This document shows positions 4,111 through 40,436 of a stretch of DNA of 40,436 nucleotides, in pieces; the first letter of the stretch is position 1, and the number at the start of each line of letters is the position of its first letter. The stretch covers positions 1-40,436 of IMG/VR virus record IMGVR_UViG_3300045921_000167; one strand, given 5' to 3'. Below the pieces are notes generated by a model, which was not told the origin of the DNA, did no database searches, and was given only the letters and a program-made list of their open reading frames with translations. The stretch comes from a virus. The position numbers and the translations under genes are program-made.

Positions 4111-4129
4111 TTTTGGTTTCCTTTCGTTG

Positions 4130-5278: not shown

Positions 5279-5289
5279 TTCATAGTTCC

Positions 5290-5784: not shown

Positions 5785-5954
5785 TAGATTAACTCCCCAC
5801 GGTTTACAGATTGAATTAATTGTTGTTTTGTCCAGTCGCCAAGATATTGTAATGTGGCAATGTCAGCACATTTGTATACACTGTATTGGCCGTTACGCTG
5901 TCGTTTAATTTTGTAGGTTTTTAAACCTATGGTGAGGTAAGTTTGTAGTTTCAT
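5784..5954 (-). CDS. Small hypothetical protein (56 aa, below the ORF-track cutoff)
   Basis: Hand translation gives MKLQTYLTIGLKTYKIKRQRNGQYSVYKCADIATLQYLGDWTKQQLIQSVNRGELI. It has an AGGAAC SD box, and its stop overlaps the next start (TAATG). Confidence 0.4.
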   Translation of the reverse strand: MKLQTYLTIGLKTYKIKRQRNGQYSVYKCADIATLQYLGDWTKQQLIQSVNRGELI

Positions 5955-5991
5955 GATTCATAGTTCCTGTTTAGTTAAAAAATTAAAATAA

Positions 5992-6228
5992 TTAAAATAT
6001 CCCGCCTAAATGGGCAAACAATGCGCCCAAAATTAGGCCATATATGCCTAAAATATAGTTGGTAAAGTTACCAAACTGGGTTTTAATGTTCTTTTCCATT
6101 GAGTCAATCCTACTATCTACGCTTAATAGTCTTTTGTCTAAATTATCAAGCGTTTTTCCTATGTGCTGAGTGTTGGATTTTAAAATCTCAATCTCTAACT
6201 GCTCTTGTGTGTATAGTTTTGTTGTCAT
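5992..6228 (-). CDS. Small C-terminally membrane-anchored coiled-coil protein (78 aa)
   Basis: AAGGCGA SD. Hydrophobic C-terminal segment NYILGIYGLILGALFAHLGGIF. Confidence 0.5.
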   Translation of the reverse strand: MTTKLYTQEQLEIEILKSNTQHIGKTLDNLDKRLLSVDSRIDSMEKNIKTQFGNFTNYILGIYGLILGALFAHLGGIF

Positions 6229-6300
6229 GATTTCGCCTTAATTAAAATCTAATAATCCTGAAGTCCATCTCTTTTAAGCTAATTATTCCTATGCCTTCTA

Positions 6301-6663
6301 TTATTGCCATGCCCTACCGCCTTTTTGCATATAAGGCTTATCCCACTTGCCTAAATCAAATCTAAGGTAATAGTTAGGGATTGAACCATAATCTGGATTA
6401 TCATCAATTTCATATTGCGGCAGTATTTCGAGTATTGTTTCCATGATCTGTTCGCATAAAGAATGCTCATTACTACCATGTTCAAATTGTCTATGGTAAT
6501 GATAGTTCAATCCTTGCTGGTAAGTCTCACCTTCAAACTCCACAAAAGAAGACATAAGCGCAACTCTTAGCGAGTTATAATCTGAAATAACGCTGAATTT
6601 GCAATCAGGGAAACGAGTTTTTAATACTTTGCGTAGTTCTTTTGCTTTTTCTACTATGTTCAT
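6301..6663 (-). CDS. Hypothetical protein (120 aa)
   Basis: Preceded by the conserved AACAGGAACTAAGAATC box, in operon orientation. Confidence 0.55.
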   Translation of the reverse strand: MNIVEKAKELRKVLKTRFPDCKFSVISDYNSLRVALMSSFVEFEGETYQQGLNYHYHRQFEHGSNEHSLCEQIMETILEILPQYEIDDNPDYGSIPNYYLRFDLGKWDKPYMQKGGRAWQ

Positions 6664-6668
6664 GATTC

Positions 6669-6839
6669 TTAGTTCCTGTTAGTTAAATATTGATATCTTT
6701 CTAAAACTTCATAATCAGTTAATAAAAACCCATCTATTCGATAGCATGGACGAAAATTACAGTAAAATTTCTGTTTCTCTACGGCATGGCCTTTTGCCTT
6801 TAATACTTGGATTATTTTTGGTAAATCTTTTAATCGCAT
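6669..6839 (-). CDS. Small hypothetical protein (56 aa, below the ORF-track cutoff)
   Basis: Hand translation gives MRLKDLPKIIQVLKAKGHAVEKQKFYCNFRPCYRIDGFLLTDYEVLERYQYLTNRN. AAGGGGA SD. It fills the gap better than the + strand ORF 6746..6940. Confidence 0.4.
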   Translation of the reverse strand: MRLKDLPKIIQVLKAKGHAVEKQKFYCNFRPCYRIDGFLLTDYEVLERYQYLTNRN

Positions 6840-6851
6840 TCTTTGTTCCCC

Positions 6852-7043
6852 TTAGTGTAAAGCACATATCAAAACAAAACTTACAAGCCATAAGGCGCAG
6901 TAGTTCATGCTGGTATAAGCTATGCCTCTTGATATTTTAGCCCATGTTGGGTAGTTCGTTTCTGTTGTTTGCGATACGTCCCCAAGTAAAAACATAAGGA
7001 AAAACGCAACTGGCAGGCTTAACATGTAAATTTGTTCTATCAT
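6852..7043 (-). CDS. Small membrane protein (63 aa, about 2 TM; start moved to an internal ATG)
   Basis: The ATG at 7043 (MIEQIYML..) is preceded by ACAGGAGCAAAGA. Two hydrophobic segments are present. Confidence 0.45.
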   Translation of the reverse strand: MIEQIYMLSLPVAFFLMFLLGDVSQTTETNYPTWAKISRGIAYTSMNYCALWLVSFVLICALH

Positions 7044-7184
7044 TCTTTGCTCCTGTTTAGTTGAATATCTTGTATGTGCTAATAATATCAAATTTATTTT
7101 AACTTGCAATAATTAATTTGTAACTGAATTGTAAAGTTGATAAAGTGGGCAATTAATATTTAGTTGAATATAAGGATATGACAA
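7044..7184. promoter_or_regulatory. Divergent early control region between the leftward (7043) and rightward (7185) blocks
   Basis: 141-bp AT-rich gap between divergent first genes. The 13-bp direct repeat TTTAGTTGAATAT occurs at 7056-7068 and 7159-7171. Confidence 0.4.
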
Positions 7185-7529
7185 ATGGAAATGATTAGAT
7201 GCCCAGCGTGTAAAGGGACTAAGAAAGTAGCGGGCTTAGGAATGATAGTTAATGATTGTACTATGTGCTATGCAACCGGAAAGATTAAAGCAAGTGATAA
7301 GCCCAAGCCCATTGAACAGATAGTTGAAGAATCAGTAAAAGAAGTTATAGCAGAAGTATCTAAGCAAGAGCCTACTATTTTATTTAATGATGAATTAGTT
7401 AATGAGATTAAAGAAGAAACAAAGCAAGTTAATGAGTTAACAGAAGATAAAGCAATAGCAGTTAATGATAGTCCAGTGGTAAAGACTGGTAAAAGAGCTA
7501 TATATAGAAAGAAGACTATATCTAAATAG
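7185..7529 (+). CDS. DnaJ-type zinc-finger (CxxCxGxG-like) protein with an acidic tail
   Basis: CPACKGTKKV and CTMCYATGKI motifs. AAGGA SD. Confidence 0.55.
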   Translation: MEMIRCPACKGTKKVAGLGMIVNDCTMCYATGKIKASDKPKPIEQIVEESVKEVIAEVSKQEPTILFNDELVNEIKEETKQVNELTEDKAIAVNDSPVVKTGKRAIYRKKTISK

Positions 7530-7544
7530 ATAGGTGTAAAATAA

Positions 7545-7913
7545 ATGGTCAGGATTAATGGACAGCATAGGCCAACGATAGAGGAAAGGGCAATAGTTAA
7601 GCGCATGGCACAAGCAGGGATACCTAAAAAGAACATAGCCAGCCTGCTAGCCCTTAGCTATGATGAGCTTGACCAGCATTACTGGCGAGAGTTAAAACAC
7701 GGGTTAGATGAGAAGATACTTGCATTGAGTGATACGGCTACTCAGTTGGCGCTGAACGGTAATGAGAAGTTATTGCAGTTTTTGTTAAGAACGCAGGGAT
7801 ATAAGTATGGGTTTAGTGAAAAACAGGTTGTGGAGGTGCATAACTCTTCTGAGTTAGAGCAACTTGAAAAACAAATACAGCAACTCGAACAACAATATGA
7901 TAAAGACTATTAA
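7545..7913 (+). CDS. HTH DNA-binding protein; possible small-terminase-like or regulatory protein
   Basis: The N-terminal HTH (IPKKNIASLLALSYDEL) is followed by LLQFLLRTQGYKYGFSEK, which resembles the 'W-L-x-R..P..YG.K' segment of some TerS proteins. The gene is not adjacent to TerL. Confidence 0.35.
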   Translation: MVRINGQHRPTIEERAIVKRMAQAGIPKKNIASLLALSYDELDQHYWRELKHGLDEKILALSDTATQLALNGNEKLLQFLLRTQGYKYGFSEKQVVEVHNSSELEQLEKQIQQLEQQYDKDY

Positions 7914-8041
7914 TCAATCAACGTGAACAATTAATCAATAAGTGTAATAATAAGTCACCAAACCAGTTCATTAATTAAACTAATTGTTAGTACAAAAATT
8001 AAACTAATCATTGCAATCATAATTAATAATAAAATCAATCA
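7910..8041. repeat. AT-rich short direct-repeat cluster in a non-coding region
   Basis: TTAATCAAT occurs at 7910-7918 and 7931-7939. AATCAATCA occurs again at 8033-8041. AATTAAACTAAT occurs at 7973-7984 and 7997-8008. Confidence 0.6.
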
Positions 8042-8112
8042 CTTACATTGATATGTCTGATAATAGTCATTACCGTGTATATGATTTAACGCTGATTTCA
8101 TGGGGTTTTCAT

Positions 8113-8190
8113 CTACCTATGTGCAGGTAGGTGAAGGGGGGGTATGCCCCCTAAAAAGAGGGGTGGGTGCGAATGCTGGAGCCTCTACCT
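8113..8190. other. GC-rich structured island with mutually exclusive hairpin options
   Basis: AGGTAG (8125-8130) can pair with CTACCT at 8113-8118 or at 8185-8190. An internal GGGGG/CCCCC hairpin lies at 8138-8151. Confidence 0.35.
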
Positions 8191-8430
8191 CACCAAATAC
8201 CAGACTATCCCTAAAATATAAGCACAATTTTTATCCAATTACTCTTCACCAGCCATCAACCAACTCCCAGACTACTCCCAAATACATTGATTTATTATTA
8301 AACACTTACTCATTCCCAAGTAAATCCCAAAGTATTTTTAAAAGCTATGTACAATTTTCACCCAAACCATTTTCCATTCCCCACTAATCCCCATAAGAAA
8401 ACGACCTACCCCATACCCCCATATATCCCC
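8191..8430. repeat. G-depleted, C-rich non-coding tract with helically phased TCCCA/TCCCCA motifs
   Basis: My hand count gives about 11 G against about 78 C in 240 nt. TCCCA occurs at 8265/8276 (11-bp spacing) and 8314/8325 (11 bp). TCCCCA occurs at 8378/8388 (10 bp). C-runs follow at 8409-8412, 8416-8420 and 8427-8430. Confidence 0.6.
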
Positions 8431-8557
8431 GGGAATTTTTTAAAAATGTCTGTATTATTTTTTATCACCCTAGACGCACTTAAAAAATCAGCCATCGTCT
8501 TTCTTTATAGAATGGTTATTTTTCATGGTAAGATTGGTTGCCCATACTGGAGTTAAT

Positions 8558-8740
8558 ATGACTTTATCTGAAATAAATGAATTGTTATCCGCTCACCAAG
8601 AAGGTTTGTCTAGCGACCAACTGGATATAATAGCTTCCTATCAACCAAGAGATAAGAAGCCAATATGGGTTTTTATGGATGGTTCAGAAGGGTATTATGA
8701 TACCTCTAACCTAAGATGGGTTGTTTTGCAAAAGATTTAG
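8558..8740 (+). CDS. Hypothetical protein (60 aa; start moved to an internal ATG)
   Basis: The ATG at 8558 (MTLSEINELL..) is preceded by GGAG. Confidence 0.4.
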   Translation: MTLSEINELLSAHQEGLSSDQLDIIASYQPRDKKPIWVFMDGSEGYYDTSNLRWVVLQKI

Positions 8741-8987
8741 GAGGTTGGTTTTTTCTGGATTCCCAATCTTTTTTAAATTCCTCCTGTGTAATATGTTTCA
8801 TCATCAAGGCAGCATCTCTTTGCATAATATTTTGTGTTTGTTCAGGTAGTTTGGAATCCACTGGCGGTAACACGCCCTGTTCTATTAATGTATTTATTTC
8901 ATCCATTAGTTGTTTATATTGTTGTTCCCATGTAGATTTCTTTTTCTGTCTTCCAGATTGTCGGTTACGTTTTTTATCGTAGTTCAT
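8706..8987 (-). CDS. Hypothetical basic protein (93 aa), a lone minus-strand gene in a plus-strand block
   Basis: The ATG at 8987 (MNYDKKRNRQSGRQKKK..) is preceded by AAGGGGAAAA. Its 3' end overlaps 8558..8740 by 35 nt. Confidence 0.45.
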   Translation of the reverse strand: MNYDKKRNRQSGRQKKKSTWEQQYKQLMDEINTLIEQGVLPPVDSKLPEQTQNIMQRDAALMMKHITQEEFKKDWESRKNQPPKSFAKQPILG

Positions 8988-9079
8988 TATTTTCCCCTTA
9001 AAGTTAAAATTTATTTGCATTCGTTAGAGTCAAAATGGTTTAATACGCTGATTACGAAAGTATTCATTATGGACTTACG

Positions 9080-9274
9080 ATGCTACTAACTAACCAGCAA
9101 GCCTTGATGCTAATGCAGGTGCTATCAGATAGCTTAATGTTTAATGACAACGCCTATTTCAAGCTATCTTTTGACACTCGCAAGAACTTGCTTGAGCACA
9201 TATTATCCCAGCAATCAAAGCATCTTATTGAGTTGGAAGATTTATCTAGTCCAAGTATAAAAACTTTACAATAA
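9080..9274 (+). CDS. Hypothetical protein (64 aa)
   Basis: ORF in block orientation. The SD is weak. Confidence 0.4.
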   Translation: MLLTNQQALMLMQVLSDSLMFNDNAYFKLSFDTRKNLLEHILSQQSKHLIELEDLSSPSIKTLQ

Positions 9275-9284
9275 GGGAATTACA

Positions 9285-9533
9285 ATGAGTGATAAAGAAA
9301 TCTCAGAACAAAGTCAAATTTTATACAACACAGCAATAGGGATTATTAATGATATGCCCATTCAAGGGTATGATCGCTTTGCTGCAACTGTTACTGCTAT
9401 AAAATATCTTCTTGCTAACTTGGTTTTAAATAGCATGAGAACTGATAATCCATTGGATTACTATGAAACAATAGACGAGATATGTGAAGAAGCAAAACAA
9501 GTAATTGCCAACAAGCTTGGAGATTCACAATGA
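9285..9533 (+). CDS. Hypothetical protein (82 aa)
   Basis: AAGGGA SD. ATGA overlap with the next gene. Confidence 0.5.
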   Translation: MSDKEISEQSQILYNTAIGIINDMPIQGYDRFAATVTAIKYLLANLVLNSMRTDNPLDYYETIDEICEEAKQVIANKLGDSQ

Positions 9534-9862
9534 CCCCAGCACAAGCATTGGAAGACTTTAGACTGAATTCAATAATTAGCGAGATGACAAAGGCCATTAT
9601 AGAGGCAATGAACTCGTTTTATTCACAAACAGACAGTGGTAAGGAATATGGCTTGGTGTCCTTTAATGCTCTGGCTAATGTGATATGTGCTCTTACGGAT
9701 GGCATTAATGTTGCTGAAGATGCCAATGAATATGAACTCAAGCGTATGTTTATTGAGGACTTAGGTCGTACTGCAAAGCAAAAGATAGAGTCTCATTGGG
9801 CAGACAAGGCAATGCAGGAGCGCACAGATGCGGGTATTGTTGATGTGGGGGATTTGCAGTGA
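9530..9862 (+). CDS. Hypothetical protein (110 aa)
   Basis: ATGA-coupled to the upstream gene. Confidence 0.5.
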   Translation: MTPAQALEDFRLNSIISEMTKAIIEAMNSFYSQTDSGKEYGLVSFNALANVICALTDGINVAEDANEYELKRMFIEDLGRTAKQKIESHWADKAMQERTDAGIVDVGDLQ

Positions 9863-10110
9863 ATAGTTTCGACATTGGTGACACAGTTTATTATTTAAAG
9901 CTATGCCCAGAAACAAAAGAAATTGAAATCCTATCTGGAAAAGTAGACAGAATAATCGCTGAGCATGACAGCAAGCGTTTATTTATTTCTAAAAAAAGAA
10001 TTTGGCTTGACGTGCATTTTGATTGCATATTGTATGAAAACGCTTACAAAACCAAAGAGGACTGCATTTTGGGAGCTATAGATAAATTACAGGGTATGTT
10101 AGAAAAGTAA
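9859..10110 (+). CDS. Hypothetical protein (83 aa, GTG start)
   Basis: GTGA overlap with the upstream stop. GGGGGA lies 8 nt upstream. Confidence 0.45.
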   Translation: MNSFDIGDTVYYLKLCPETKEIEILSGKVDRIIAEHDSKRLFISKKRIWLDVHFDCILYENAYKTKEDCILGAIDKLQGMLEK

Positions 10111-10127
10111 CCGCATATAGGATAATT

Positions 10128-10313
10128 ATGGAAATCCCACAACAACTGCGTCATGACATGCTGGTATTGTTAGGTAAATTGGAAGCCCTGTCGTTTCCTT
10201 TGATGTGGCAAGCCAATAATGAAACGCTTAATCAATCGTATTATGACTTAATTGATTCAATAAAAAGCCAGTATGAGAGTATTTTGAAACGATTAATAGC
10301 GTATGAGGGGTGA
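10128..10313 (+). CDS. Hypothetical protein (61 aa)
   Basis: AGGA SD, in-block ORF. Confidence 0.45.
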   Translation: MEIPQQLRHDMLVLLGKLEALSFPLMWQANNETLNQSYYDLIDSIKSQYESILKRLIAYEG

Positions 10314-10471
10314 TGATGACTGAATTTCAGAAAATTAAACATGAGCTAGAGAAACTCTACGCATTTTTAAATGGTGCTCATTTGGCAACCAATGATGAAA
10401 ATGCCAGTGGTACATTCCATCAAGCATGTCATAAGTTACAGGATATTTTGGGGATGTTTCAGAATGATTGA
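10313..10471 (+). CDS. Small hypothetical protein (52 aa, below the ORF-track cutoff)
   Basis: Hand translation gives MMTEFQKIKHELEKLYAFLNGAHLATNDENASGTFHQACHKLQDILGMFQND. It has a TGATG overlap upstream and an ATGATTGA overlap downstream. Confidence 0.4.
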   Translation: MMTEFQKIKHELEKLYAFLNGAHLATNDENASGTFHQACHKLQDILGMFQND

Positions 10472-11042
10472 CTACATAAAACCAAAAAACAACCCGCCTG
10501 AATATTTTAAAGAAGGCATACATGTATTAATGCTGATTAATAGAGGGGTGCAGAGTAGTAATAAAGGTTCAAAAAGATGGGTAAATAAAATTATTACAAC
10601 CAATCCATTAGAGTACGATAATGCAGTCAGCGCACTGATTTCCATGCAAAATTATTTGAATAACCCAGATATAAGATTATATGCCTCTATTAATGACAGG
10701 AAATTTAATTCCGCTATTAAATTATTCAAACACCAGCAATTGGATTTGCTTCCAGAAAATGAATATAAATTTTATTCAAAAATAAATGATTCATTTTGTA
10801 GTTGTTTAATGCAGCCTGAATGCAGGAATAACAATTTGTTTTTGCTTGATGTTGATTCAAAAGACAGAAAAGAGGTAGACGGATTTTTAATAACCAACTT
10901 TGGAATAAAAATGCACTATATGTACCCGACAATCAATGGATGGCATTACATTGTCGAGCCTTTTAACCCAAAAATGTGTGAATCTATGACAACATTTGAA
11001 GTAAAAAAAGACGCATTAATGTTAATAAATTGGATTGATTGA
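10464..11042 (+). CDS. Hypothetical protein (192 aa) with DxD and GxH motifs; weak primase-polymerase (AEP)-like resemblance
   Basis: The start was moved to MIDYIKPK (ATG 10464), coupled to the upstream ORF. Motifs are NLFLLDVDSKD and, about 30 aa later, INGWHYIVEPF. Confidence 0.5.
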   Translation: MIDYIKPKNNPPEYFKEGIHVLMLINRGVQSSNKGSKRWVNKIITTNPLEYDNAVSALISMQNYLNNPDIRLYASINDRKFNSAIKLFKHQQLDLLPENEYKFYSKINDSFCSCLMQPECRNNNLFLLDVDSKDRKEVDGFLITNFGIKMHYMYPTINGWHYIVEPFNPKMCESMTTFEVKKDALMLINWID

Positions 11043-11045
11043 AAA

Positions 11046-11912
11046 ATGATTGACTACCAAAAACTGAAAGAAGCGCATGAGTTAATGCTTATATTAAGTA
11101 ACAACAATGGATGTTCATTAAGATTAACTTTTTGCGATGGAAAATTTTGGAAATATTTTTTACAGATAAACGACAAAAAAGATATTTTTGAGTTCAATTG
11201 TATTGACGACCTAATCACCAAACTCAAAGAACTAACACAAACAAAACCTAAATATGCACTTGGGGATATAGTTTGGTTATATGACTACTCCATTAATGAG
11301 ATCCAATCTTTCAAAATAGATGCGATAACACTAAAAACATTTAAATATAGCGGGAATTGCATTGAGGATGGGTTTGCGTATGAAGAAATAGCAGAAAAGG
11401 ATATTTACCCTTCCCGCGATGCCCTTATCGATGCGCAAATTGAGTATTGGAAAGGTTTAAAACAAGATAAAGTTGTACCTGTTGAAGAAAGCCAAGAGTC
11501 TAAAATATGCCCTGAGTGCGGTAGTTATTTAGATGCTTATGGGGTATGTTGGCAAACAGGATGTAGCTATATTAAGCCACTTAAGCCAGAAGACATGCAC
11601 CCCAAGTTTGAAGGTGAAGTGAAAGGGTTTAATCATTGCGAACACGATTTTGATGCATTAAAAGATGACGCTAGGTTCCGGTATTTAAGAATGATTAATG
11701 GGTGTGATTATTATATATCACGCTACAAATTCAATAATGAAATATATTGTAGTTGCGGACTTCCAGCCGATGTACCTCATGCTTGTAAATGCCGAAAATG
11801 TGGTGCTGGAAAGATAATGCCGTGTGAGCATGAACAAACAACTGAATATTATTTAGCATATCCATATAAAAAACCTAATAAATGCAAAAAATGCGGGGAG
11901 TTTTATAGATGA
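11046..11912 (+). CDS. Cys-rich zinc-ribbon protein (288 aa)
   Basis: Contains CPECGSYLDAYGVCWQTGC, CKCRKCGAGKIMPC and KCKKCGEF. Confidence 0.55.
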   Translation: MIDYQKLKEAHELMLILSNNNGCSLRLTFCDGKFWKYFLQINDKKDIFEFNCIDDLITKLKELTQTKPKYALGDIVWLYDYSINEIQSFKIDAITLKTFKYSGNCIEDGFAYEEIAEKDIYPSRDALIDAQIEYWKGLKQDKVVPVEESQESKICPECGSYLDAYGVCWQTGCSYIKPLKPEDMHPKFEGEVKGFNHCEHDFDALKDDARFRYLRMINGCDYYISRYKFNNEIYCSCGLPADVPHACKCRKCGAGKIMPCEHEQTTEYYLAYPYKKPNKCKKCGEFYR

Positions 11913-12148
11913 GTGATTTTACAAAGCAAGATTTACAGATGCTTTATAACATGATTATACATGTTAGAAATGACTACCCTGCGCTTATTAATGATAAAGA
12001 CTGTACTGATTTAAAAAATAAAATTAAAGAAAAGATAGAGCGAGAGGAACGCTACGAAAAAACCAAAATTGCTTTCGATAAAATGCGTCAATCTTTGTAT
12101 GAATCATCTCCTGATATTCTTTTAAAAGAAAAAGGCGAAAAGTCATGA
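11909..12148 (+). CDS. Hypothetical protein (79 aa); N-terminus paralogous to 12374..12604
   Basis: ATGA coupling. Starts MSDFTKQDLQML. Confidence 0.5.
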   Translation: MSDFTKQDLQMLYNMIIHVRNDYPALINDKDCTDLKNKIKEKIEREERYEKTKIAFDKMRQSLYESSPDILLKEKGEKS

Positions 12149-12381
12149 CTAAGCATGAAAAGGTTGCCAATATTATCACTTTTTTCGCCATTATGTTTGG
12201 TGAAGATAGTTCCATATGGTCTGAGGTAATGAAATTTAGTCCTGAATATATCATTGAAAAATTTGAAAGGTATGTATTGTCAACAGCAATCGAGAACCCA
12301 TGGAATATGCATCCATTACTAAAAAACACTCGATTTGATGCTTATGTTGATATATGGGGATTGGAGTTAAAAGATGAATGA
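12145..12381 (+). CDS. Hypothetical protein (78 aa)
   Basis: ATGA coupling. Confidence 0.5.
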   Translation: MTKHEKVANIITFFAIMFGEDSSIWSEVMKFSPEYIIEKFERYVLSTAIENPWNMHPLLKNTRFDAYVDIWGLELKDE

Positions 12382-12604
12382 CTTTACGAAAGAAGAATTA
12401 AAGTTATTAGGTGGCTGTGTTTTTAGTAAATTTGTCTCATCTTTAGATGATCCATCAATACATCATTTACAGCCTGATTTAAAAAAATTAAGAGATAATA
12501 TTCAATCCATGATTGAGAACTATTGTGAGCATGAGTGGAGAAGGAGCGCAATTAATGCAATATATTGCCCTTATTGCCAAAAACATGTGGAGTACAGTGA
12601 ATGA
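12374..12604 (+). CDS. Hypothetical protein (76 aa) with a C-terminal CxxC; N-terminus paralogous to 11909..12148
   Basis: Starts MNDFTKEELKLL and contains CPYCQKH. It overlaps both neighbours. Confidence 0.5.
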   Translation: MNDFTKEELKLLGGCVFSKFVSSLDDPSIHHLQPDLKKLRDNIQSMIENYCEHEWRRSAINAIYCPYCQKHVEYSE

Positions 12605-12903
12605 CAATAAAAATAAACAAAGAGCTTTTACAAGAGATAGTTGGGGAATATGCGCAGCAAGAGCGATTTGAAGTAGTGCAAAATGTTATCAGTGATCATG
12701 GTCGTTGGTCTATTTACTATGACTGCACTATCAAAGACAAAGAAACAGGCAAGTTTTATGATGCCTCTTATTCACAAGGAGCAACCGAATCACAAGACGA
12801 ATACCCATTTGAAAACGATGAACCAGATGAAGATGGAAACATTGAGCTTCATGAGGTAGAGCCATATGAGGAAATTGTGACGAAGTTTAGGAGAGTCAAA
12901 TGA
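12601..12903 (+). CDS. Hypothetical acidic protein (100 aa)
   Basis: ATGA coupling. Contains ESQDEYPFENDEPDEDGNIELHEVEPYEE. Confidence 0.5.
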   Translation: MTIKINKELLQEIVGEYAQQERFEVVQNVISDHGRWSIYYDCTIKDKETGKFYDASYSQGATESQDEYPFENDEPDEDGNIELHEVEPYEEIVTKFRRVK

Positions 12904-33146: not shown

Positions 33147-33511
33147 TGCGATTACAGCCAGAAGAAGCCATCATGGTGGCAGTATTTGATTATGTGCGTC
33201 TAATCAAGATGGACAGGTATATTTGGCATATAGCCAATGAACGCAAGACATCTCCTCAGTATGGGCTTAAATTAAAGCGTATGGGCGTTAAGTCTGGTGT
33301 TAGTGATATCTTTGTGGCAATACCAAAGAAAGAGTTTCATGGCCTTTTTATTGAAGTTAAGACAAAGAAAGGAAGACTTACGGAGTCTCAAAAAACATTT
33401 ATTAATGACATGCTGGAAATGGGATATTATGCTGTTGCCTGTTATGGAATTGAGGATGTATTAGACACCCTCAACTGGTATCTTAAATTGCCGAATTTTT
33501 CACAATCTTAA
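33146..33511 (+). CDS. VRR-NUC domain nuclease
   Basis: GVSDIFVAIP...GLFIEVKTKKGRLTESQKTFINDMLEMGYYAVAC is the PD-(D/E)xK VRR-NUC pattern. Confidence 0.8.
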   Translation: MRLQPEEAIMVAVFDYVRLIKMDRYIWHIANERKTSPQYGLKLKRMGVKSGVSDIFVAIPKKEFHGLFIEVKTKKGRLTESQKTFINDMLEMGYYAVACYGIEDVLDTLNWYLKLPNFSQS

Positions 33512-33851
33512 GAGGTTTTTCATCTTCTGGAATTTCAGGATCAGCAGCATAAAGCAATGCTGACAATTGCGCATAGTTTAGGTTTCTCAAAGATTTAATA
33601 CCCTTTTTTACCTTAAGTTTTTCTCTATCAAATCTTTTGTAATATAAAACAAATCCATTTGTGTCCCAAAACAAGCATTTAATTTTATCCATGTTTTTAT
33701 TGTAAAAAACATAAATAGAGCCATCATACAAATGCGTTTCTTTATTTGATTTAATTAATGCTGACAATGAATCTATCGACATTCTAAAATCAATAGGCTC
33801 CCCAGCAAGATAAATCTTCCTTTGGTCGGCAGGTAATAAAATATTTTCCAT
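33483..33851 (-). CDS. IS66 Orf2 (TnpB_IS66)-like protein
   Basis: RKIYLAGEPIDFRMSIDSLSALI..DGSIYVFYNKNMDKIKCLFWDTNGFVLYYKRFDREKL...LNYAQLSALL aligns by eye along its full length to IS66-family Orf2 (e.g. IWL..DMR.G.NGLA..GHLFIF..R.D.IKVLW.D.DG.CLF.KRLERG.F.....L..AQLSMLL). Confidence 0.8.
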   Translation of the reverse strand: MENILLPADQRKIYLAGEPIDFRMSIDSLSALIKSNKETHLYDGSIYVFYNKNMDKIKCLFWDTNGFVLYYKRFDREKLKVKKGIKSLRNLNYAQLSALLYAADPEIPEDEKPLKIVKNSAI

Positions 33852-34427: not shown

Positions 34428-34796
34428 CTAAAAAGGCAATTCATCATTCTCAGGATATTTTGATTCGTTTTTTTGACTGCTCTTTGGTATTAATTTAATT
34501 TCCTTTGCAATAACAGAAAATTTAATCCGATCAGAACCATCCTGACCCTTGTACTTTTGGGAATCCATTGCACCATTAACGTACAACAAATCTCCTTCGT
34601 GCACATACTTTGTGACAATTTCAGATAATTTTCCATAGAGAACCACATTGTGCCACATAGACTTCTCTTGCTTTTCCCCATTTTTCATGGTTTTTTCAGT
34701 AGTAACCATACTGACATTAGAGACAGGAGTTCCTTGTGGCAATGTGCGCGTGTCAATTTTCCCAACACGACCTAAAATTTGTGCAAAATTAATCAT
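34428..34796 (-). CDS. ssb: Single-stranded DNA-binding protein
   Basis: OB-fold pattern (ILGRVGKID...WHNVVLYGKLSEI..YV.EGDLLYVNG) and an acidic C-terminal tip NDELPF. Confidence 0.85.
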   Translation of the reverse strand: MINFAQILGRVGKIDTRTLPQGTPVSNVSMVTTEKTMKNGEKQEKSMWHNVVLYGKLSEIVTKYVHEGDLLYVNGAMDSQKYKGQDGSDRIKFSVIAKEIKLIPKSSQKNESKYPENDELPF

Positions 34797-35800
34797 TATG
34801 CTTTCCTCAATTGAGTGATAAAGTGATCGGCTATTTCAGGTGTCATGGATTCTATCGACTCACATTCATAGTATTTTAATGCTTTCTGTATGCGGTCTTC
34901 TGAAATTTGTTTGCCTTCAATAAAAGTATAAATATCTTTCAATTGCTTATCACTCAACCTTCTATTTTCACTAGAGCTATGATGTGTTTCATTTTCTTGT
35001 GCTCCAGTCTCGCCCAATTCAACAGACTTTGAGTTCTCAATTGTCTGCGCCTCAGCATATTGATCCGAATCCTGTGAAGATAAATCCTGATTAATTTCAT
35101 TCGTTTCTCCTTTTTTAGTTAAAATATCCTTTTTAAGCATTTCTGTTCGTGAAGGAGCAGAAGTATCAATGACAGCATATTCAGCTTCAATATAATCCTG
35201 TACTTCCTCAACACATTTAAGACCTTTTAGAGCGTCTGCAAAAGTGTCTCGTAGAGCAAATGCTCTGGCTCTCATCTGCAACATGCGAGCAGTATGATCA
35301 GTCCATACTCCGGGCTTCCCAAGCAGTTTCGCTTTCTTAGCATCCTCAAGAGTATAGCATCTTGTCTTATCTGCTCTGTTTTTGCGTTTAACAGTGCATT
35401 TAAATCCACTTAAAGTTTCCCCGGTATAAATTGGCTCCTCAATAACATCAATACATTCAGGGTGATTGAGTACCAAAGCCAACATACCATCTCCGTATAA
35501 ACAAGGCTTGCCATTAATTACAGCAATATCCTGTATGGCTTGCTCAATAGGCAATCCTAACTGATAGCCCATGGCCATTGCCACAAAGATATCAGCCGGC
35601 TTTCCTATGTACTGCTTAGGAACAAGGCTAGATTTCGATAAGTATTCAGCTATTTTCCTAAAATGCTCTGCATGTTCTGGTGCAAATAGACTATCAAAAA
35701 CCTTTTCTCTTTTCTGTGCCAATTCTTTGCGCAATTCTGCAATATGCGAATTAAGAACAGCAACATTTTTAACCAACTCCTGTACGGCTAATTCATTCAT
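34796..35800 (-). CDS. RecT/Red-beta-superfamily single-strand annealing protein
   Basis: GLPIEQAIQDIAVINGKPCLYGDGMLALV and GVWTDHTARMLQMRARAFALRDTFADAL (compare Bet GPWQSHPKRMLRHKA..ARLAFG). It sits between the exonuclease and SSB genes. Confidence 0.75.
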   Translation of the reverse strand: MNELAVQELVKNVAVLNSHIAELRKELAQKREKVFDSLFAPEHAEHFRKIAEYLSKSSLVPKQYIGKPADIFVAMAMGYQLGLPIEQAIQDIAVINGKPCLYGDGMLALVLNHPECIDVIEEPIYTGETLSGFKCTVKRKNRADKTRCYTLEDAKKAKLLGKPGVWTDHTARMLQMRARAFALRDTFADALKGLKCVEEVQDYIEAEYAVIDTSAPSRTEMLKKDILTKKGETNEINQDLSSQDSDQYAEAQTIENSKSVELGETGAQENETHHSSSENRRLSDKQLKDIYTFIEGKQISEDRIQKALKYYECESIESMTPEIADHFITQLRKA

Positions 35801-35804
35801 CTTT

Positions 35805-36638
35805 CTATCCTTTTAAAGTGAATACTCTTGTCCCTTTTTTATTGGCTTTCCATGTGGCCAAAATCTCGCCTTCCAAATCCACTAAATATTCAGCATTTCC
35901 CATATGCTGCATTAGCTTCATCTTGTAGTGTTCTTCTTTATCCGAAAGCCTCTTAAGTTCCATTTTAACATTCATTAACGAAGCATAATCCTGCTTTGCT
36001 TTGAATGTGGCTTCAGCCATTAAATCAGGCTTTGGATTATTGTATTTTAACCTGCAATCAGTAATTGAAACTGGTTCTGGCTCAATCCTACGCTGCACAC
36101 AATCCCAAAACTTTAAATCCGACTCCAGTATAAGTTTTTCTAATTCAGTGTCACGCTCGTAGGTGAACTGCATGTATTCATAACCACCTATCAGAACAGC
36201 GCAAAACCCTTTTGAAGCATTCTTAACCGCAACCTGTTTAGCTATCTGGATAAGATAAGTTAATGGAATACCATCCTCATAAGCACTATCCCATTCCTTC
36301 CTCATGAATGAATTAGCCATTTTCGCTTCAACTACAGCATCCATCGATGGAATATAACCATCCAGATTTGCAAAAATAAAAGGGTAATCTGGGTGATAAA
36401 TTGTGTCAGGAAACTCTATCTCAACATTATTTACCTCACCAAACCTTTGAACGATCAAAGGCTCAATCCTGTTTCCCCAGTACTGCAAATCCGTTACTTC
36501 ATCTTCAGGGGTAATAATCCCCGTTTTTTCCAAGTACAATTGGTATGGTGTTTTGTAGCTAGAATAGCCCATAATAACGGGCGAATCAGACGCACCAATA
36601 CCATTTACACGGTTTTTTCGTTGCTCATCCGTTAGCAT
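35805..36638 (-). CDS. YqaJ-type (lambda Exo-like) recombination exonuclease
   Basis: The ATG at 36638 follows AGGAG. Contains NGIGASDSPVIMGYSSYKTPYQLYLEKTG and VVEAKMAN. Confidence 0.8.
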   Translation of the reverse strand: MLTDEQRKNRVNGIGASDSPVIMGYSSYKTPYQLYLEKTGIITPEDEVTDLQYWGNRIEPLIVQRFGEVNNVEIEFPDTIYHPDYPFIFANLDGYIPSMDAVVEAKMANSFMRKEWDSAYEDGIPLTYLIQIAKQVAVKNASKGFCAVLIGGYEYMQFTYERDTELEKLILESDLKFWDCVQRRIEPEPVSITDCRLKYNNPKPDLMAEATFKAKQDYASLMNVKMELKRLSDKEEHYKMKLMQHMGNAEYLVDLEGEILATWKANKKGTRVFTLKG

Positions 36639-36725
36639 TTCGACTCCTGTCGTATATGTTAAATAAAAATTTATTTTAATCAATTAAATTTTAATTTATT
36701 ATACCCTGATTTGAGAGACAGTAAC
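36639..36725. promoter_or_regulatory. Divergent control region between the recombination operon (-) and the cro-like operon (+)
   Basis: 87-bp, almost pure AT gap between divergent first genes. It holds only low-complexity AT palindromes (AAATAAA aa TTTATTT; TTAAT ca ATTAA). Confidence 0.4.
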
Positions 36726-36965
36726 ATGACAATAGATGAAGTGATTGCTTACTTTGGCAATTTGAATAGAGTTATGAAGGCACTGGGACTGGCCTCACAA
36801 AATATGACAGCATGGAAACGTAATGGCTATATCCCTCTGTTGCAGCAATATCGCATTGCAGAGTTAACAGGTGGCGCATTAATGCCAGATGATGATGATC
36901 CAAAGTTTTCTAAACAAAGGAAAAGAGAATTATTAACAAAAGGAAGTAATTATGAAAAAAGGTAA
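36726..36965 (+). CDS. Cro / YdaS-family HTH regulator
   Basis: The start was moved to MTIDEVIAYFGN. Contains VMKALGLASQNMTAWKRNGYIPLLQQYRIAELTGGAL, the YdaS/Cro-like pattern. Confidence 0.65.
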   Translation: MTIDEVIAYFGNLNRVMKALGLASQNMTAWKRNGYIPLLQQYRIAELTGGALMPDDDDPKFSKQRKRELLTKGSNYEKR

Positions 36966-37785
36966 ATTATTGGCTATAAGCGCACTGGTATTGGGATTAA
37001 ATGCTTGCGAGAGAGTTCCTCCGGGGTATCGAGGTGTGATGGTAAGCATGATGGGGAATGGGAAAGGAGTAAATGAGCAGTCTGTAGGAGTTGGATGGCA
37101 ATACACGGGGTTTTATAGCCAATTATTTTTATTTCCAACTTTCCTGCAAAATCATTCTTGGATAGATGAAGAAGCCATTTCTATGCAAACATCTGAAGGA
37201 CTATCTATCACGACAGCAGCAGGAATAACCTATCAAATTAAAGAAGAAAACGTCGTTAAAGTTTTTACTAAATACAGACGTGGAATTAAAGAAATTACTT
37301 CCATTTTTTTGCATAACATGGTTAGAGATGCCATGAATGAAGTCGCTAGCACTATGACAGTTGATCAGATTTATGGAGCCAAAAAAGAATATTTTATTGA
37401 ACAAGTAAGCAAAAAAGTTATAAGAGATGCCTCAAAGAATGGCATAGATGTCGATAAAATTTATTTAATTGGCTCTTTTATTTTGCCACCATCTGTTAAA
37501 GATGCCATTGACGCAAAAATTCAAGCATCACAAAACGCTGTAAAAGTGGAAAACGAGATTCAAACCAGCAAAGCAGAAGCCCAAAAAAGAATAGTTGATG
37601 CAGAAGCCAGAGCAAAGCAAATATTAATTAATGCAGAATCACAAGCTAAAGCTAATAAAATCTTGGCAGAATCATTGACTCCAGAATTTGTTCAATACCA
37701 AGCAATTTTAAAATGGAATGGCAAATTGCCTACAACTAACGCCTCAAATGCCGTTCCTTTTCTGAACATAGGCAGCAAACCATGA
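36952..37785 (+). CDS. SPFH/Band-7 (prohibitin-like) domain lipoprotein
   Basis: Signal peptide with lipobox-like LGLNAC. The SPFH core starts at PPGYRGVMV. C-terminal coiled coil AEAQKRIVDAEARAKQILINAESQAKANKILAESLTPEFVQYQAI. Confidence 0.75.
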   Translation: MKKGKLLAISALVLGLNACERVPPGYRGVMVSMMGNGKGVNEQSVGVGWQYTGFYSQLFLFPTFLQNHSWIDEEAISMQTSEGLSITTAAGITYQIKEENVVKVFTKYRRGIKEITSIFLHNMVRDAMNEVASTMTVDQIYGAKKEYFIEQVSKKVIRDASKNGIDVDKIYLIGSFILPPSVKDAIDAKIQASQNAVKVENEIQTSKAEAQKRIVDAEARAKQILINAESQAKANKILAESLTPEFVQYQAILKWNGKLPTTNASNAVPFLNIGSKP

Positions 37786-38003
37786 GATCGATCATATATA
37801 GGATTTTGTTTTATTTATTTGGCTTGATCATGATCCAAGGCTGCATTTTGCCTTGGGTTATCTCGAATGCCATTTTACCTGCACCAGTTAACATAGGGAT
37901 TGTCTGTTTAATTGTTTTATTTTGGTTTTATATGATTGAGCTTTTAATAAAAAGAATTAATAAATTATCCAAGGACGATGAAGATGCTACTAATCAACGA
38001 TAA
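37782..38003 (+). CDS. Small 2-TM membrane protein with a charged tail
   Basis: ATGA coupling to the SPFH gene. Contains ILFYLFGLIMIQGCILPWV and IGIVCLIVLFWFYMIELLI. Confidence 0.55.
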   Translation: MRSIIYRILFYLFGLIMIQGCILPWVISNAILPAPVNIGIVCLIVLFWFYMIELLIKRINKLSKDDEDATNQR

Positions 38004-38799
38004 ACCAGTGAATTATTTTTTCTTTCCAGCAGGTGAGATACAAGTAAGATTGCCGGAGATTGAAACAGAACGTGTCATTTTGACATCACTTCCTAAATCT
38101 TCCGATGATATTATGTTGATAATGCTGGTTGTTAATGCATTAAAGCAGCAGGGAATTACTGATATTGATTTGGATTTATTATATTTGCCTTATGCAAGAC
38201 AAGACCGAGTGTGCTCGAAAGGCGAGGCATTCAGTCTTGAGGTCATGGCAGATATTTTGAATTGGTTGTCTATCAATGTGCGATTATATGATGTCCATAG
38301 CAATACTTCTTTGGATTTAATTCATTACAATTCCCATATCTCTGTTTCAAATATATTTAAACGCTATGGGATTTTGGATAGATATAATTTAGAAAACATT
38401 ATTTTTGTTCAACCTGACAAGGGTTCCTCTGAGAAATTATTTAATTTGTGCATCAATTTAAATTTATCAAATACACTACTTCAGTGTGATAAAGTACGTG
38501 ACCCTTCTACAGGGCATATTATCAGGTATGAAGTCCCCCCATTTAATAATTACAAAGATATATTTGTCATTGATGACATTTGTGATGGTGGAGCAACCTT
38601 TTTGAAGCTCGGTGAGGAGTTAAAGCAGCGTGGCGCAAGATATATGATTCTTTACGTTACGCATGGCATTTTCAGTCAGGGATTAAGTCAATTAAGGCAG
38701 TATTATGATGAAATAATTTGCCATCATGTATTCGATCCTCTTTTGGAGAAATCGAAAGAATTAACTGTTTTAAGGAAAATACACAATGTTAATTGTTAA
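37978..38799 (+). CDS. Ribose-phosphate pyrophosphokinase (Prs)-family protein; candidate ADPR-pyrophosphate synthetase (Adps) of NARP1
   Basis: LLYLPYARQDR (Prs YARQDR motif) and VIDDICDGGATF (PRPP/ribose-phosphate loop). Length is 273 aa. The start may be 37984. Confidence 0.7.
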   Translation: MKMLLINDKPVNYFFFPAGEIQVRLPEIETERVILTSLPKSSDDIMLIMLVVNALKQQGITDIDLDLLYLPYARQDRVCSKGEAFSLEVMADILNWLSINVRLYDVHSNTSLDLIHYNSHISVSNIFKRYGILDRYNLENIIFVQPDKGSSEKLFNLCINLNLSNTLLQCDKVRDPSTGHIIRYEVPPFNNYKDIFVIDDICDGGATFLKLGEELKQRGARYMILYVTHGIFSQGLSQLRQYYDEIICHHVFDPLLEKSKELTVLRKIHNVNC

Positions 38800-40258
38800 C
38801 CCACTTTATGCAATAGATTTTTACAAAGCAGACCATAGAAGCCAATATCCTAAAGGAACAACTGAAATCTATTCAAACTTTACACCAAGGTATGTAAAAA
38901 CTGAATTGCCATTTTTTGACAATAAAGTCGTGGTATATGGAATACAAAACATGATTCAGGAGTTCTTGGATTATCAGTGGGCAAATATAAGCGATATATC
39001 AATCTTGGGTTACAGGAATTTAATGAAAACCTCTTTAGGGGCTAAGGATTTTGACATAAGCCATTTAAGAGCATTAAAAGACCTTGGCTATTTACCAATA
39101 TCGATTAAGGCACTTCCTGAAGGTACAAGGTGTCCCATTGGTGTTCCCCTACTAACCATACGCAACACTCACCCGGAGTTTTTTTGGTTTACAAATTACT
39201 TGGAAACAGCTATTTCCTCTATGCTATGGAAGCCAATCACAGTAGCTACAATTGCATTTCACCTGAAGGTTATCGTCAAAAAATTTGCTTTATTAACTGG
39301 TGGTGATCCGGGATTTTGCGATTTTCAGGTTCATGATTTCAGTTTCCGTGGTATGTCAGGAATTGAAGATGCTATTCGGTGTGGAGTAGCCCACTTAACG
39401 AGTTTCAAAGGAACCGATTGCGTTCCAGCTATCCCTTATATTCAACGATATTTTGGGCAAGATGAAAGCAATCTTGGGTTTTCTGTTCCTGCAACTGAAC
39501 ATAGTGTCATGACATGTGCAGGAAGGGACAAAGAGCGTGATACAGTTTATCGATTGATTACTGAAACATATCCTGAAGGCATTGTATCGATTGTTGCGGA
39601 TTCATATGACTTTTGGGGATTTTTAGCAAATATATTGCCAAGTATGTATAAAGAAATCATGGAGCGCAATGGCAAGCTCGTTATAAGGCCAGATTCAGGT
39701 GATCCATTTAAGATTATTTGTGGTGATCCAGATTCAGAAGACCCCTTTGAAAAGAAAGGTGCTCTAAGGCTTTTATGGGATCAATTTGGTGGAACGATTA
39801 ACAATGCAGGATTTCGTGTTTTAGATTCGCACATAGGGTTAATTTACGGGGATTCAATTACACCATCACTTGCACATAGAATTTTGCAGCAAATGGCTGA
39901 TATGGGGTTTTGCTCTCAAAATATTGTTTTTGGCGTAGGTTCTTACACCTACCAATACATGACAAGAGATACGTTTGGTTTTGCAATGAAAGCAACAAGT
40001 GCGGTTATTGGTGGCCAGCGTCAAGCAATTTACAAAGATCCAAAAACATCAAACGGTAGCAAAAAATCAGCAAAAGGTTTGATTTATGTTGGAAAAGACA
40101 CGAAAGGTGAGTATTTCATGAAAGAAGATGTCACAGAAGAATTAGAATCCAAAGGAGAATTACAAGAGGTTTATAGGGATGGAAATTTATTAAACAAGCA
40201 AACTTTTATTCGTATTAGAGAGCGATTAAGCCTTGAAGTTGAAAGGCTAACCGGGTAG
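38786..40258 (+). CDS. NAMPT-family phosphoribosyltransferase; candidate nicotinamide ADPR-transferase (Namat) of NARP1, or NadV
   Basis: Contains DFYKADHRSQYPKGTTEIYSNFTPR, DFSFRGMSG, ATEHSVM, IRPDSGDP and FGVGSYTYQ. It overlaps the Prs-like gene by 14 nt. Confidence 0.85.
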   Translation: MLIVNPLYAIDFYKADHRSQYPKGTTEIYSNFTPRYVKTELPFFDNKVVVYGIQNMIQEFLDYQWANISDISILGYRNLMKTSLGAKDFDISHLRALKDLGYLPISIKALPEGTRCPIGVPLLTIRNTHPEFFWFTNYLETAISSMLWKPITVATIAFHLKVIVKKFALLTGGDPGFCDFQVHDFSFRGMSGIEDAIRCGVAHLTSFKGTDCVPAIPYIQRYFGQDESNLGFSVPATEHSVMTCAGRDKERDTVYRLITETYPEGIVSIVADSYDFWGFLANILPSMYKEIMERNGKLVIRPDSGDPFKIICGDPDSEDPFEKKGALRLLWDQFGGTINNAGFRVLDSHIGLIYGDSITPSLAHRILQQMADMGFCSQNIVFGVGSYTYQYMTRDTFGFAMKATSAVIGGQRQAIYKDPKTSNGSKKSAKGLIYVGKDTKGEYFMKEDVTEELESKGELQEVYRDGNLLNKQTFIRIRERLSLEVERLTG

Positions 40259-40297
40259 ATTAGCCTAACAATAAACCTTAACATAATTTTTTTACTT

Positions 40298-40360: not shown

Positions 40361-40436
40361 ACCGTTAGCGTTGGCGTTGCTATTGGCGTTTGTTGCAGCG
40401 TTCTTGGATCACTACTGTTGCAGCGTTTGTTGCAGC
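40361..40436. repeat. Iteron-like repeat cluster at the circular junction (continues into 1..46)
   Basis: GCGTT pentamers occur at 40368, 40374 and 40386 and inside each unit. TGTTGCAGC(GTT) units start at 40391, 40416 (=1) and 40428 (=13). The left arm of the 13-bp inverted repeat lies at 40403-40415. Confidence 0.75.

Follow-up and report, generated by a model that had tools for sequence, protein, structure and literature searches.

We analyzed the viral record IMGVR_UViG_3300045921_000167 over its whole length of 40,436 nt (the window). Two overlapping plus-strand genes, here called adps and namat, encode a small Prs-family protein and a large NAMPT-family protein. From their sequences, they very probably form a plain two-gene module of the nicotinamide adenine dinucleotide (NAD+) reconstitution pathway 1 (NARP1), consisting of the enzymes Adps and Namat, that would be expressed early in lytic growth and counter host defenses based on NAD+-splitting enzymes (NADases). 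The genes and their motifs are as follows, with residues of the characterized NARP1 enzymes of Bacillus phage SPbetaL1 given for comparison:

37984–38799, plus strand: adps, Prs-family gene, 271 aa from the ATG at 37984 (an alternative ATG at 37978 gives 273 aa)
38191–38208, plus strand: YARQDR, the Prs-family ATP/diphosphoryl-transfer motif of Adps (aa 72–77, numbered from 37978)
38491–38520, plus strand: Adps motif KVRDPSTGHI, starting at K172, located by alignment with K162 of SPbetaL1 Adps
38566–38601, plus strand: phosphoribosyl pyrophosphate (PRPP)-type loop of Adps, VIDDICDGGATF (aa 197–208)
38786–40258, plus strand: namat, NAMPT-family gene, 490 aa, overlapping adps by 14 nt
38882–38926, plus strand: selectivity-clamp loop (SCL) of Namat, TPRYVKTELPFFDNK (aa 33–47; K38 is at the position of SPbetaL1 R40)
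39494–39505, plus strand: Namat TEHS, holding the catalytic His239
39686–39703, plus strand: Namat RPDSGD (R301 aligns with SPbetaL1 R306, D303 with D308)
39938–39970, plus strand: selectivity-clamp helix (SCH) of Namat, GSYTYQYMTRD (aa 385–395; Y387 and Y391 are the adenine-stacking aromatics)

The original prediction had described a 273-aa protein with a YARQDR signature and a PRPP loop, overlapping by 14 nt a 490-aa protein with the NAMPT motif set. Both open reading frames (ORFs), the overlap and all of the quoted motifs were verified, those of the large protein being DFYK (aa 11–14), FSFRG (aa 185–189), TEHS (aa 237–240) and RPDSGD (aa 301–306). The ORF of the small gene had been placed at 37978–38799 and was found there, but the spacing from the ribosome-binding site and two independent gene calls favor the ATG at 37984, which is probably the one used. 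YARQDR aligned with YARQDR in E. coli Prs and with YSRMDR in SPbetaL1 Adps. Family searches matched the small protein to phrog_619 (E-value 1e-64), TIGR01251 (7e-31) and Pfam Pribosyltran_N (7e-08), and the large protein to phrog_448 (8e-184), NF006629 (1e-161) and Pfam NAPRTase (1e-38). The minus strand beneath the pair contained no open segment longer than 77 aa.

Pairwise identity could not separate Adps from Prs, since the small protein was 25.8% identical to SPbetaL1 Adps and 24.7% identical to E. coli Prs, and profiles, indels and motifs were therefore used instead. When scored against TIGR01251, a curated Prs model with a cut-off of 113 bits, the small protein reached 107.3 bits, compared to 106.0 bits for the biochemically validated SPbetaL1 Adps and 422.7 bits for E. 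coli Prs. It fell below the cut-off of every one of the 11 NCBIfam Prs models; TIGR01251 gave the best score, and the other ten were far below. A hidden Markov model (HMM) of Adps was built without the window sequence from five proteins (SPbetaL1, Felix-type, ICP1, Staphylococcus Kayvirus and DyoEdafos), not all of which have been experimentally tested. This model gave 167.8 bits for the window protein and 105.4 bits for E. coli Prs. By itself, phrog_619 discriminated poorly, as E. coli Prs also scored 193.

All aligned proteins encoded next to a Namat, including that of the window, lacked the N-terminal segment of Prs (about 18 residues), its C-terminal tail and its ribose-5-phosphate element, H-A-x-Q-I-Q-G-F-F-D. 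The window protein is 42–44 aa shorter than E. coli Prs, in line with the predicted difference of about 40 aa from housekeeping Prs. Where Prs has DKRRPRAN, the Namat-linked proteins have K-x-R-[DN]-x-x-T-G-x-I. The shorter form, K-x-R-[DN]-x-x-T-G, was present in 49 of the 73 viral and 64 of the 73 bacterial Namat-linked Prs-like proteins, but not in E. coli Prs. K172 of the window protein aligned with the catalytic K162 of SPbetaL1 Adps; the K162A mutant of that enzyme is inactive, and its Prs activity was undetected in vitro (bioRxiv 10.1101/2024.02.11.579819). The PRPP-type loop follows DDICDGG[ARGK]T, the dominant variant of the Namat-linked family, while the E. coli Prs loop reads DDMIDTGGT. 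The ratio of nonsynonymous to synonymous substitution rates (dN/dS) of adps relative to close relatives was 0.21–0.28, indicating purifying selection. An assignment of the small protein to the Adps clade, distinct from housekeeping Prs, is supported by these comparisons.

For the large protein, the distinguishing feature is the selectivity clamp by which Namat holds the adenine of pyrophosphorylated ADP-ribose (ADPR-PP), formed by the SCH helix and the variable SCL loop (PMC12774641). The SCH has the Namat-only consensus GS-X-Phi-X-Phi-X-Phi-TRD, with aromatics at positions 3 and 7, and the third SCL residue is either R, or K or Y followed by a stacking residue (PMC12774641). The window SCH, GSYTYQYMTRD, fits this consensus and is the same as the motif of Felixounavirus (Bas63-type) phages; SPbetaL1 has GSFTYQYNTRD. 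At the same position, Nampts of the NARP2 type have GGGLLQQLDRD (a KVP40-like Vibrio phage) or GGGLLQEVTRD (Klebsiella phage Miro). The residues that contact NAD+ in SPbetaL1 Namat (20 of 20) and the catalytic His were all identical or conservatively replaced in the window protein, the only changes being R40 to K38, A362 to S357 and F392 to Y387. S357 and Y387 are what most of the clade has, and of 160 clade members, 90 have R, 48 have K and 6 have H at the position of K38. The catalytic core residues F185, D211, R301, D303, H239, D11 and Y13 were identical to F189, D215, R306, D308, the catalytic His and D13'/Y15' of SPbetaL1; published R306G and R306A mutants of the SPbetaL1 enzyme are inactive.

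A search of the PDB returned SPbetaL1 Namat (9w5x/9w5w) as the best match with 482 bits, compared to about 239 bits for human NAMPT and 230 bits for Xanthomonas Nampt. The identity of the window protein was 47–48% with the Namats of SPbetaL1 and DyoEdafos and 33% with NARP2 Nampts. Two C-terminal profiles separated the groups: phrog_15800 gave 284 bits for the window, 312 for SPbetaL1 Namat and 103–111 for NARP2 Nampts, and phrog_12872 gave 230, 263 and 78–79 bits, respectively. In contrast, phrog_448 alone separated them poorly, with NARP2 Nampts also scoring about 550. The catalytic TEHS motif occurs as PATEHS in the Adps-linked clade and as PAREHS in NARP2 Nampts. In a neighbor-joining tree of 162 sequences, the window protein fell within the Adps-linked group, at distances of 0.54–0.90 from clade members and 1.42–1.46 from NARP2 Nampts. 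The split between the Adps-linked clade and the NARP2 Nampts, which were represented by two sequences only, had 100/100 bootstrap support in a 42-taxon subset, and the clade of the window lineage had 95/100. The dN/dS of namat relative to close relatives was 0.046, again indicating purifying selection. These results support grouping the large protein with Namat rather than with NARP2-type Nampt. A comparison of both proteins with characterized Adps/Namat and with Prs/Nampt had been suggested together with the original prediction, and both sided with Adps/Namat.

The first 21 nt of the window (1–21) are identical to the last 21 nt (40416–40436), so that the sequence closes into a circle of 40,415 bp. 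Two contigs from independent assemblies (40,445 and 40,610 bp) hold the identical protein pair and represent the same genome, and near-identical contigs were obtained from three samples (JGI 3300045911, SRR30649435 and SRR30649437). The terminal identity and the similar size of the independent assemblies show that the window is a whole genome. Every ORF with a length of 70 aa or more (55 in total) was scanned against Pfam, and many of them also against PHROGs. Nicotinamide mononucleotide (NMN) adenylyltransferase (Nmnat) domains (CTP_transf_like, NadR and NadM) were found neither among the 55 ORFs nor in a six-frame search of the complete genome. No NUDIX, PnuC, Macro or RyR domain was found in the ORFs, nor was there any NUDIX or NrtR_WHD domain in the window that would indicate the regulator NrtR. 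The six-frame search, using a purpose-built Nudix-regulator HMM and regular expressions for the Nudix box and HxGH, returned only a noise match of 11.8 bits. This ORF (3030–3320, minus strand) was rejected as a Nudix regulator, as it encodes a 96-aa helical protein with neither a Nudix box nor a Pfam match.

The claim that the 40 kb encode neither an Nmnat nor a Nudix protein was thus borne out over the complete circular genome. This absence had been offered as the main argument for NARP1. It is real, yet it is the weakest line of evidence, and it is the motifs and the clade that discriminate. With the clamp motif, the NAD+ contacts, the profiles, the clade, the gene layout and the lack of an Nmnat taken together, NARP1 fits better than a Prs plus Nampt salvage pathway, as the original prediction had it.

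Other arrangements known from phages were considered and rejected. NARP2 consists of Nampt plus Nmnat, and here the phage Nmnat is absent, the large protein is not in the KVP40 clade and the aromatic clamp is present. NARP3 combines a PnuC-type nicotinamide riboside transporter with a bifunctional NadR-like kinase/adenylyltransferase (PMC13464706), and neither a PnuC nor a NadR-like domain was found in any ORF. Two extended forms of NARP1 are known: NARP1-AP, found in 15% of NARP1 phages, adds the Macro-domain protein Adpp, a phosphatase acting on the ADP-ribose (ADPR) variant ADPR-1P, while the RyDEP type adds a glycosidase with an RyR domain (PF02026). Neither a Macro nor an RyR match was found anywhere in the genome, the operon included.

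The pair lies in a translationally coupled unit that begins with cro and is surrounded by the following genes:

36711–36965, plus strand: Cro-like gene (P22_Cro Pfam, 5e-10)
36952–37785, plus strand: SPFH/Band-7 lipoprotein, 277 aa, lipobox LNAC (Band_7 5e-22, phrog_200 6e-68)
37782–38003, plus strand: 73-aa membrane protein (TM73), between the SPFH gene and adps
435–1205, plus strand: O-like replication initiator
1218–2588, plus strand: DnaB

Successive genes from cro through the SPFH gene, TM73 and adps to namat overlap by 14, 4, 26 and 14 nt. Downstream of namat comes a structured spacer of 193 nt, after which the same strand continues, across the circular junction, with orf116, the replication initiator and dnaB. 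The pair had been placed at the end of the cro-side early operon; instead, it is in the middle, with the replication genes downstream. Since it is located in the rightward early operon, the pair is expected to be expressed as lytic growth begins. When consensus promoters and terminators were searched for, matches were fewer than in shuffled controls, and no promoter-like site stood out upstream of the pair. The expectation of early expression comes from the gene order and the overlaps, as the scans were uninformative.

Four relatives (loci L013, L015, L016 and L093 of the survey described below) have the entire layout in common, including the SPFH and membrane protein genes; their Namats are 56–59% and their Adps proteins 43–48% identical to those of the window. 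In the closest relative, L174 (Namat 94%, Adps 85% identical), adps and namat come immediately after cro. The absence of the SPFH and membrane protein genes from L174 suggests that they are a separable insertion outside the NAD+ module. Their position, equivalent to that of cII in lambdoid phages, suggests a membrane, FtsH-related or exclusion role. In an 89%-identical relative (L176:1174–1861), the open Namat frame begins no earlier than the counterpart of residue 37, behind a gap of 94 nt. The contig is short, and its gene may be truncated at the 5' end, carry a frameshift or have been misassembled.

The spacer between namat and orf116 contains a perfect 13-bp inverted repeat, CTTGGATCACTAC / GTAGTGATCCAAG, in the sequence formed by joining 40403–40436 to 1–46. 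It encloses two TGTTGCAGC direct repeats, of which there is a third copy at 40391. A separate hairpin at 40239–40271 spans the namat stop codon. Such structures might serve as an operator, in termination or antitermination, or as part of an origin.

The NARP1 pathway was described with SPbetaL1 enzymes in vitro and with phages Bas63 and Fado in vivo (original preprint, bioRxiv 10.1101/2024.02.11.579819). Structures of SPbetaL1 Namat have since been determined, and a Paenibacillus foliorum pair was shown to be active in vitro as well as in vivo (PMC12774641). The DyoEdafos pair has been shown in vitro and that of ICP1 (NrsAB) by genetics. NARP1 has been reported in 859 phage genomes (4.3%), and the NAD+-depleting defenses that it is described as countering are type I Thoeris, DSR1/2, SIR2-HerA and SEFIR. 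By analogy to these systems, a host NADase effector (TIR, SIR2, SEFIR and similar) would split NAD+ into ADPR and nicotinamide. The 271-aa Adps would then transfer a pyrophosphate from ATP to the free ribose C1 of ADPR, yielding ADPR-PP, and the 490-aa Namat would replace the pyrophosphate with nicotinamide, regenerating NAD+ directly, with no NMN adenylyltransferase step.

Several observations weigh against this assignment. Both reactions, the early timing and the anti-defense effect are extrapolated from characterized homologs with 26–48% identity. Adps itself is just 26–32% identical to characterized Adps proteins and 25% identical to E. coli Prs, so that its assignment rests on profiles, indels and synteny, and no Adps structure was found for comparison. 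In the window SCL, K38 is followed by Thr, whereas the published Lys and Tyr examples have an aromatic stacking residue next, which leaves one of the three stacking contacts to the adenine without a clear counterpart. Y36 or F43/F44 could take this role. Genome scans, a comparison of the portal protein and a search for tRNA genes did not identify the host. Finally, Namats retain PRPP-dependent NMN formation in vitro (PMC12774641; bioRxiv 10.1101/2024.02.11.579819), so that some classical Nampt activity is possible.

This last property is also what an explanation by classical salvage would draw on. According to that explanation, PRPP would come from the small protein, acting as a genuine synthetase, and NMN from the large one, acting as a Nampt/NadV; host enzymes (NadR, NadM, or PncC plus NadD/NadE) would then complete NAD+, resulting in a NARP2-like boost. 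The Pfam and NCBIfam names, Prs-like and NAPRTase/NAMPT, agree with such a pathway, and homologous prs-nadV operons in bacteria have historically been read in this way (PMC2330246). However, the small protein is below every curated Prs cut-off, with a score profile like that of SPbetaL1 Adps, and it lacks the conserved ribose-5-phosphate element of Prs, while the large protein has the ADPR-PP clamp and is separated from the PRPP-preferring phage Nampts by the 100/100 split. Furthermore, the homologous Bas63 pair is functional without host pncC and nadR, and 94% of phages with a KVP40-type Nampt bring their own Nmnat, of which this genome has none. We consider classical salvage unlikely.

The pair might also serve the prophage, through lysogenic conversion or a housekeeping function. 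It would then manage NAD+/ADPR homeostasis in the host, as the chromosomal adps-namat-nrtR genes probably do. The phage is a temperate one that encodes an integrase (4130–5278), and homologous pairs with 47–59% identity occur on bacterial chromosomes, usually with the ADPR-sensing NrtR; surveys suggest housekeeping roles for chromosomal NARP1. Here, however, the genes are coupled between cro and the replication genes, in a lytic early operon that is normally repressed in the lysogen. Neither NrtR nor any other dedicated regulator was found, there is no promoter-like site standing out before the pair, and NrtR is absent from all 79 related viral loci, making such a role very unlikely. Most improbable of all is an altered substrate scope, in which a NARP1-like pair accepts modified ADPR (phospho-ADPR or another NADase product): the SCL reads RYVK-T with no aromatic after the Lys, dN/dS is about 5-fold higher for adps than for namat, and defenses that make ADPR variants do exist (e.g., aRES, yielding ADPR-1P), but Lys is the second commonest state at this SCL position (48/160), single SCL changes lower activity only 1.3–1.7-fold (PMC12774641), the remaining ligand contacts are all canonical, and the known extensions to ADPR variants need extra genes (Macro Adpp, RyDEP) that are absent here.

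Considered as a NARP1 module, the window pair resembles that of SPbetaL1 (Osterman et al. 2024) in its organization, with adjacent genes, adps followed by namat, in a temperate phage without Nmnat. SPbetaL1 Adps has 272 aa, compared to 271–273 aa in the window, the SCH type is the same, and the NAD+ contacts and catalytic Lys are conserved. On the other hand, the two Adps proteins are only 26% identical, the window SCL is 4 residues longer and has Lys38 for Arg40, and the PRPP-type loop reads DDICDGGAT in the window and DDLSSFGGT in SPbetaL1. The genomic positions also differ: the window pair follows cro in a phage of 40 kb that has a P22-type portal, whereas that of SPbetaL1 is at the end of a 134-kb SPbeta-like genome.

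The Felixounavirus systems (Bas63 type; Escherichia phage dune) share the identical SCH, the SCL Lys and the DDICDGG-x-T loop, and the Namats are 46% identical. These phages are lytic myoviruses, however, and their SCL Lys is followed by Trp instead of Thr. In phage dune (L009:1072–4270), unlike in the window, a gene for an HNH homing endonuclease parts adps from namat, and the 593-aa Namat aligned to the window protein in two tblastn pieces, consistent with extra sequence inserted into the enzyme. An Adps–Namat pair with an aromatic SCH is likewise present in Mycobacterium phage DyoEdafos and Vibrio phage ICP1 (NrsAB), the Namats being 48% and 46% identical, respectively, to that of the window. 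DyoEdafos differs in having an RyR-domain glycosidase (RyDEP) between the two genes, while accessory genes of the RyR or Macro type are absent from the window.

NARP2, as in Vibrio phage KVP40, has in common with the window the NAMPT fold, the catalytic core (R, D, His and the nicotinamide-stacking F/Y) and NAD+ as the end product. It differs in sequence (33% identity) and in having GGGLLQ at the aromatic clamp site, PAREHS for PATEHS and QGD for YGDS; there is no adjoining Prs-like gene, and the pathway depends on an Nmnat from the phage, of which the window genome has none. E. coli Prs (b1207) shares with the window Adps the phosphoribosyltransferase-type fold family, YARQDR, the region of the catalytic Lys/Arg dyad and the DD-x-x-D-x-G-x-T loop. 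The window protein differs in being only 25% identical and 42–44 aa shorter, without the N-terminal segment, the QGFFD element and the C-terminal tail.

To place the pair among its relatives, we surveyed the best 80 viral-contig loci, with Namats 45–59% identical to that of the window. An intact Namat-like ORF was found in 79 of the 80 loci, and an Adps-like ORF flanked it in 74 of these 79. Three of the five loci without Adps (L042, L071 and L091) have less than 500 nt of upstream sequence. The aromatic SCH was present in at least 73 of the 79 loci, and no Nmnat was found in any of them; a single Nudix match turned out to be a Nudix–thymidylate kinase fusion. NrtR was likewise absent from the viral loci (0/79; L013–L092). 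The pair is conserved in the phage lineage and lies next to cro in relatives.

Among bacterial loci (L093–L172), an Adps-type Prs paralog was found beside a Namat-type gene in 73 of 79, and NrtR was present as well in 63 of 79. These Prs-like neighbors of Namat are of the Adps type and not housekeeping Prs. The bacterial prs-nadV-nrtR operons (Acinetobacter, Shewanella and Cytophaga, among others) resemble the window in combining an Adps-type Prs with a Namat-type NadV, with shared motifs, 47–59% Namat identity and the same gene order, often with overlapping genes. Unlike the phage pair, which has no regulator and is in an early lytic operon, they are chromosomal and mostly linked to NrtR. AntiDefenseFinder has a NARP1 (ADPS/Namat) model family, which is also detected in bacterial chromosomes, including 469 occurrences in Acinetobacter.

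The best match in the phage database, L002 (CAKLQF020000015.1, 'Acinetobacter phage MD-2021a'), contains the pair and a third gene at 3093–6310. This 112-kb record carries fepC, an AraC-family regulator, TauE and hlyD, and for this reason looks like a bacterial chromosome rather than a phage. The third gene (L002:5543–6310) is annotated as a 'bifunctional NMN adenylyltransferase/ADP-ribose pyrophosphatase', and such a gene is present in the 63 NrtR-containing bacterial loci. It is, however, NrtR: it matched the NrtR structures 3gz5/3gz6 with 197 bits and contains the Pfam domains NrtR_WHD and NUDIX, whereas the match to a true NadM–Nudix protein was only 26 bits. A Prs-NadV-NadM salvage layout was therefore rejected for the relatives, since the bacterial operons, too, lack an Nmnat.

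Rodionov et al. (2008) described prs-nadV-nrtR operons in which ADPR is the de-repressing effector, and left the dedicated Prs paralog unexplained (PMC2330246). We tentatively propose, as an idea that falls slightly short of an even chance, that phage NARP1 is a regulator-less, early-expressed version of this ADPR-induced bacterial operon. If the chromosomal enzymes carry out NARP1 chemistry, the 'NadV salvage' operons would be ADPR-recycling modules whose inducer is their own substrate. This would explain the dedicated Prs paralog and would identify a likely source of phage NARP1. In the literature that was searched, NrtR and NARP1 were mentioned together in a single paper, with NrtR in a generic sense only. 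For the window itself, a narrower novelty would be a substrate scope altered by its unusual clamp loop (K38-T39), the reading judged most improbable above. The linkage to NrtR in bacteria and its absence from the phage sample tie the regulatory puzzle of 2008 to the NARP1 chemistry of 2024, and may outweigh the result for the window itself. In a separate observation, the profile phrog_12872 (547 positions) matched Adps-like proteins over positions 1–225 and the Namat C-terminus over positions 374–541. As this profile spans both proteins, some phages may encode a fused or mis-joined Adps–Namat.

The window pair is a standard copy of the published NARP1 pathway and does not involve a new mechanism. 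Its interest lies in being a divergent and naturally Nmnat-free member, with Adps 26–32% and Namat about 47% identical to characterized enzymes, and in providing a new sequence for probing the variability of the Namat clamp loop and the structurally uncharacterized Adps. A 40-kb temperate phage lineage known from metagenomes spends 2.3 kb of its early operon on rebuilding NAD+, which implies that its hosts commonly deploy NAD+-depleting defenses.

The phage is temperate, with a P22-type portal and a complete circular genome. In addition to a large terminase, the portal (2e-91) and a GH108 endolysin, the recognizable genes include:

4130–5278, minus strand: integrase
34428–36683, minus strand: YqaJ exonuclease, RecT and single-stranded DNA-binding protein (SSB)

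At the nucleotide level, the region had no match among 50,697 phage records, and no close relative was found in that collection. The portal is only about 24% identical to portals of cultured phages. A genome scan for the host with a single protein found nothing, and a further scan found only relatives of at most 59% identity, spread over many phyla. No tRNA genes were found in the genome, and an Rfam scan of the whole window matched no family.

Beside the integrase, a stretch of ≈7.6 kb (5290–12903) with a lower GC content (0.33–0.36) is filled with about 20 small ORFs, which are distributed over both strands and had next to no Pfam or PHROG matches, the sole exception being LPD29 at 6301–6663. 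This is likely an accessory or moron region, and it could hold more defense or anti-defense genes. A 122-aa ORF at 33483–33851 (minus strand), between the lysis/VRR-NUC genes and the recombination module, matched IS66 Orf2 (TnpB_IS66, 1e-26). It is not accompanied by an IS66 transposase, and it is also kept in two sibling contigs (L004 and L005).

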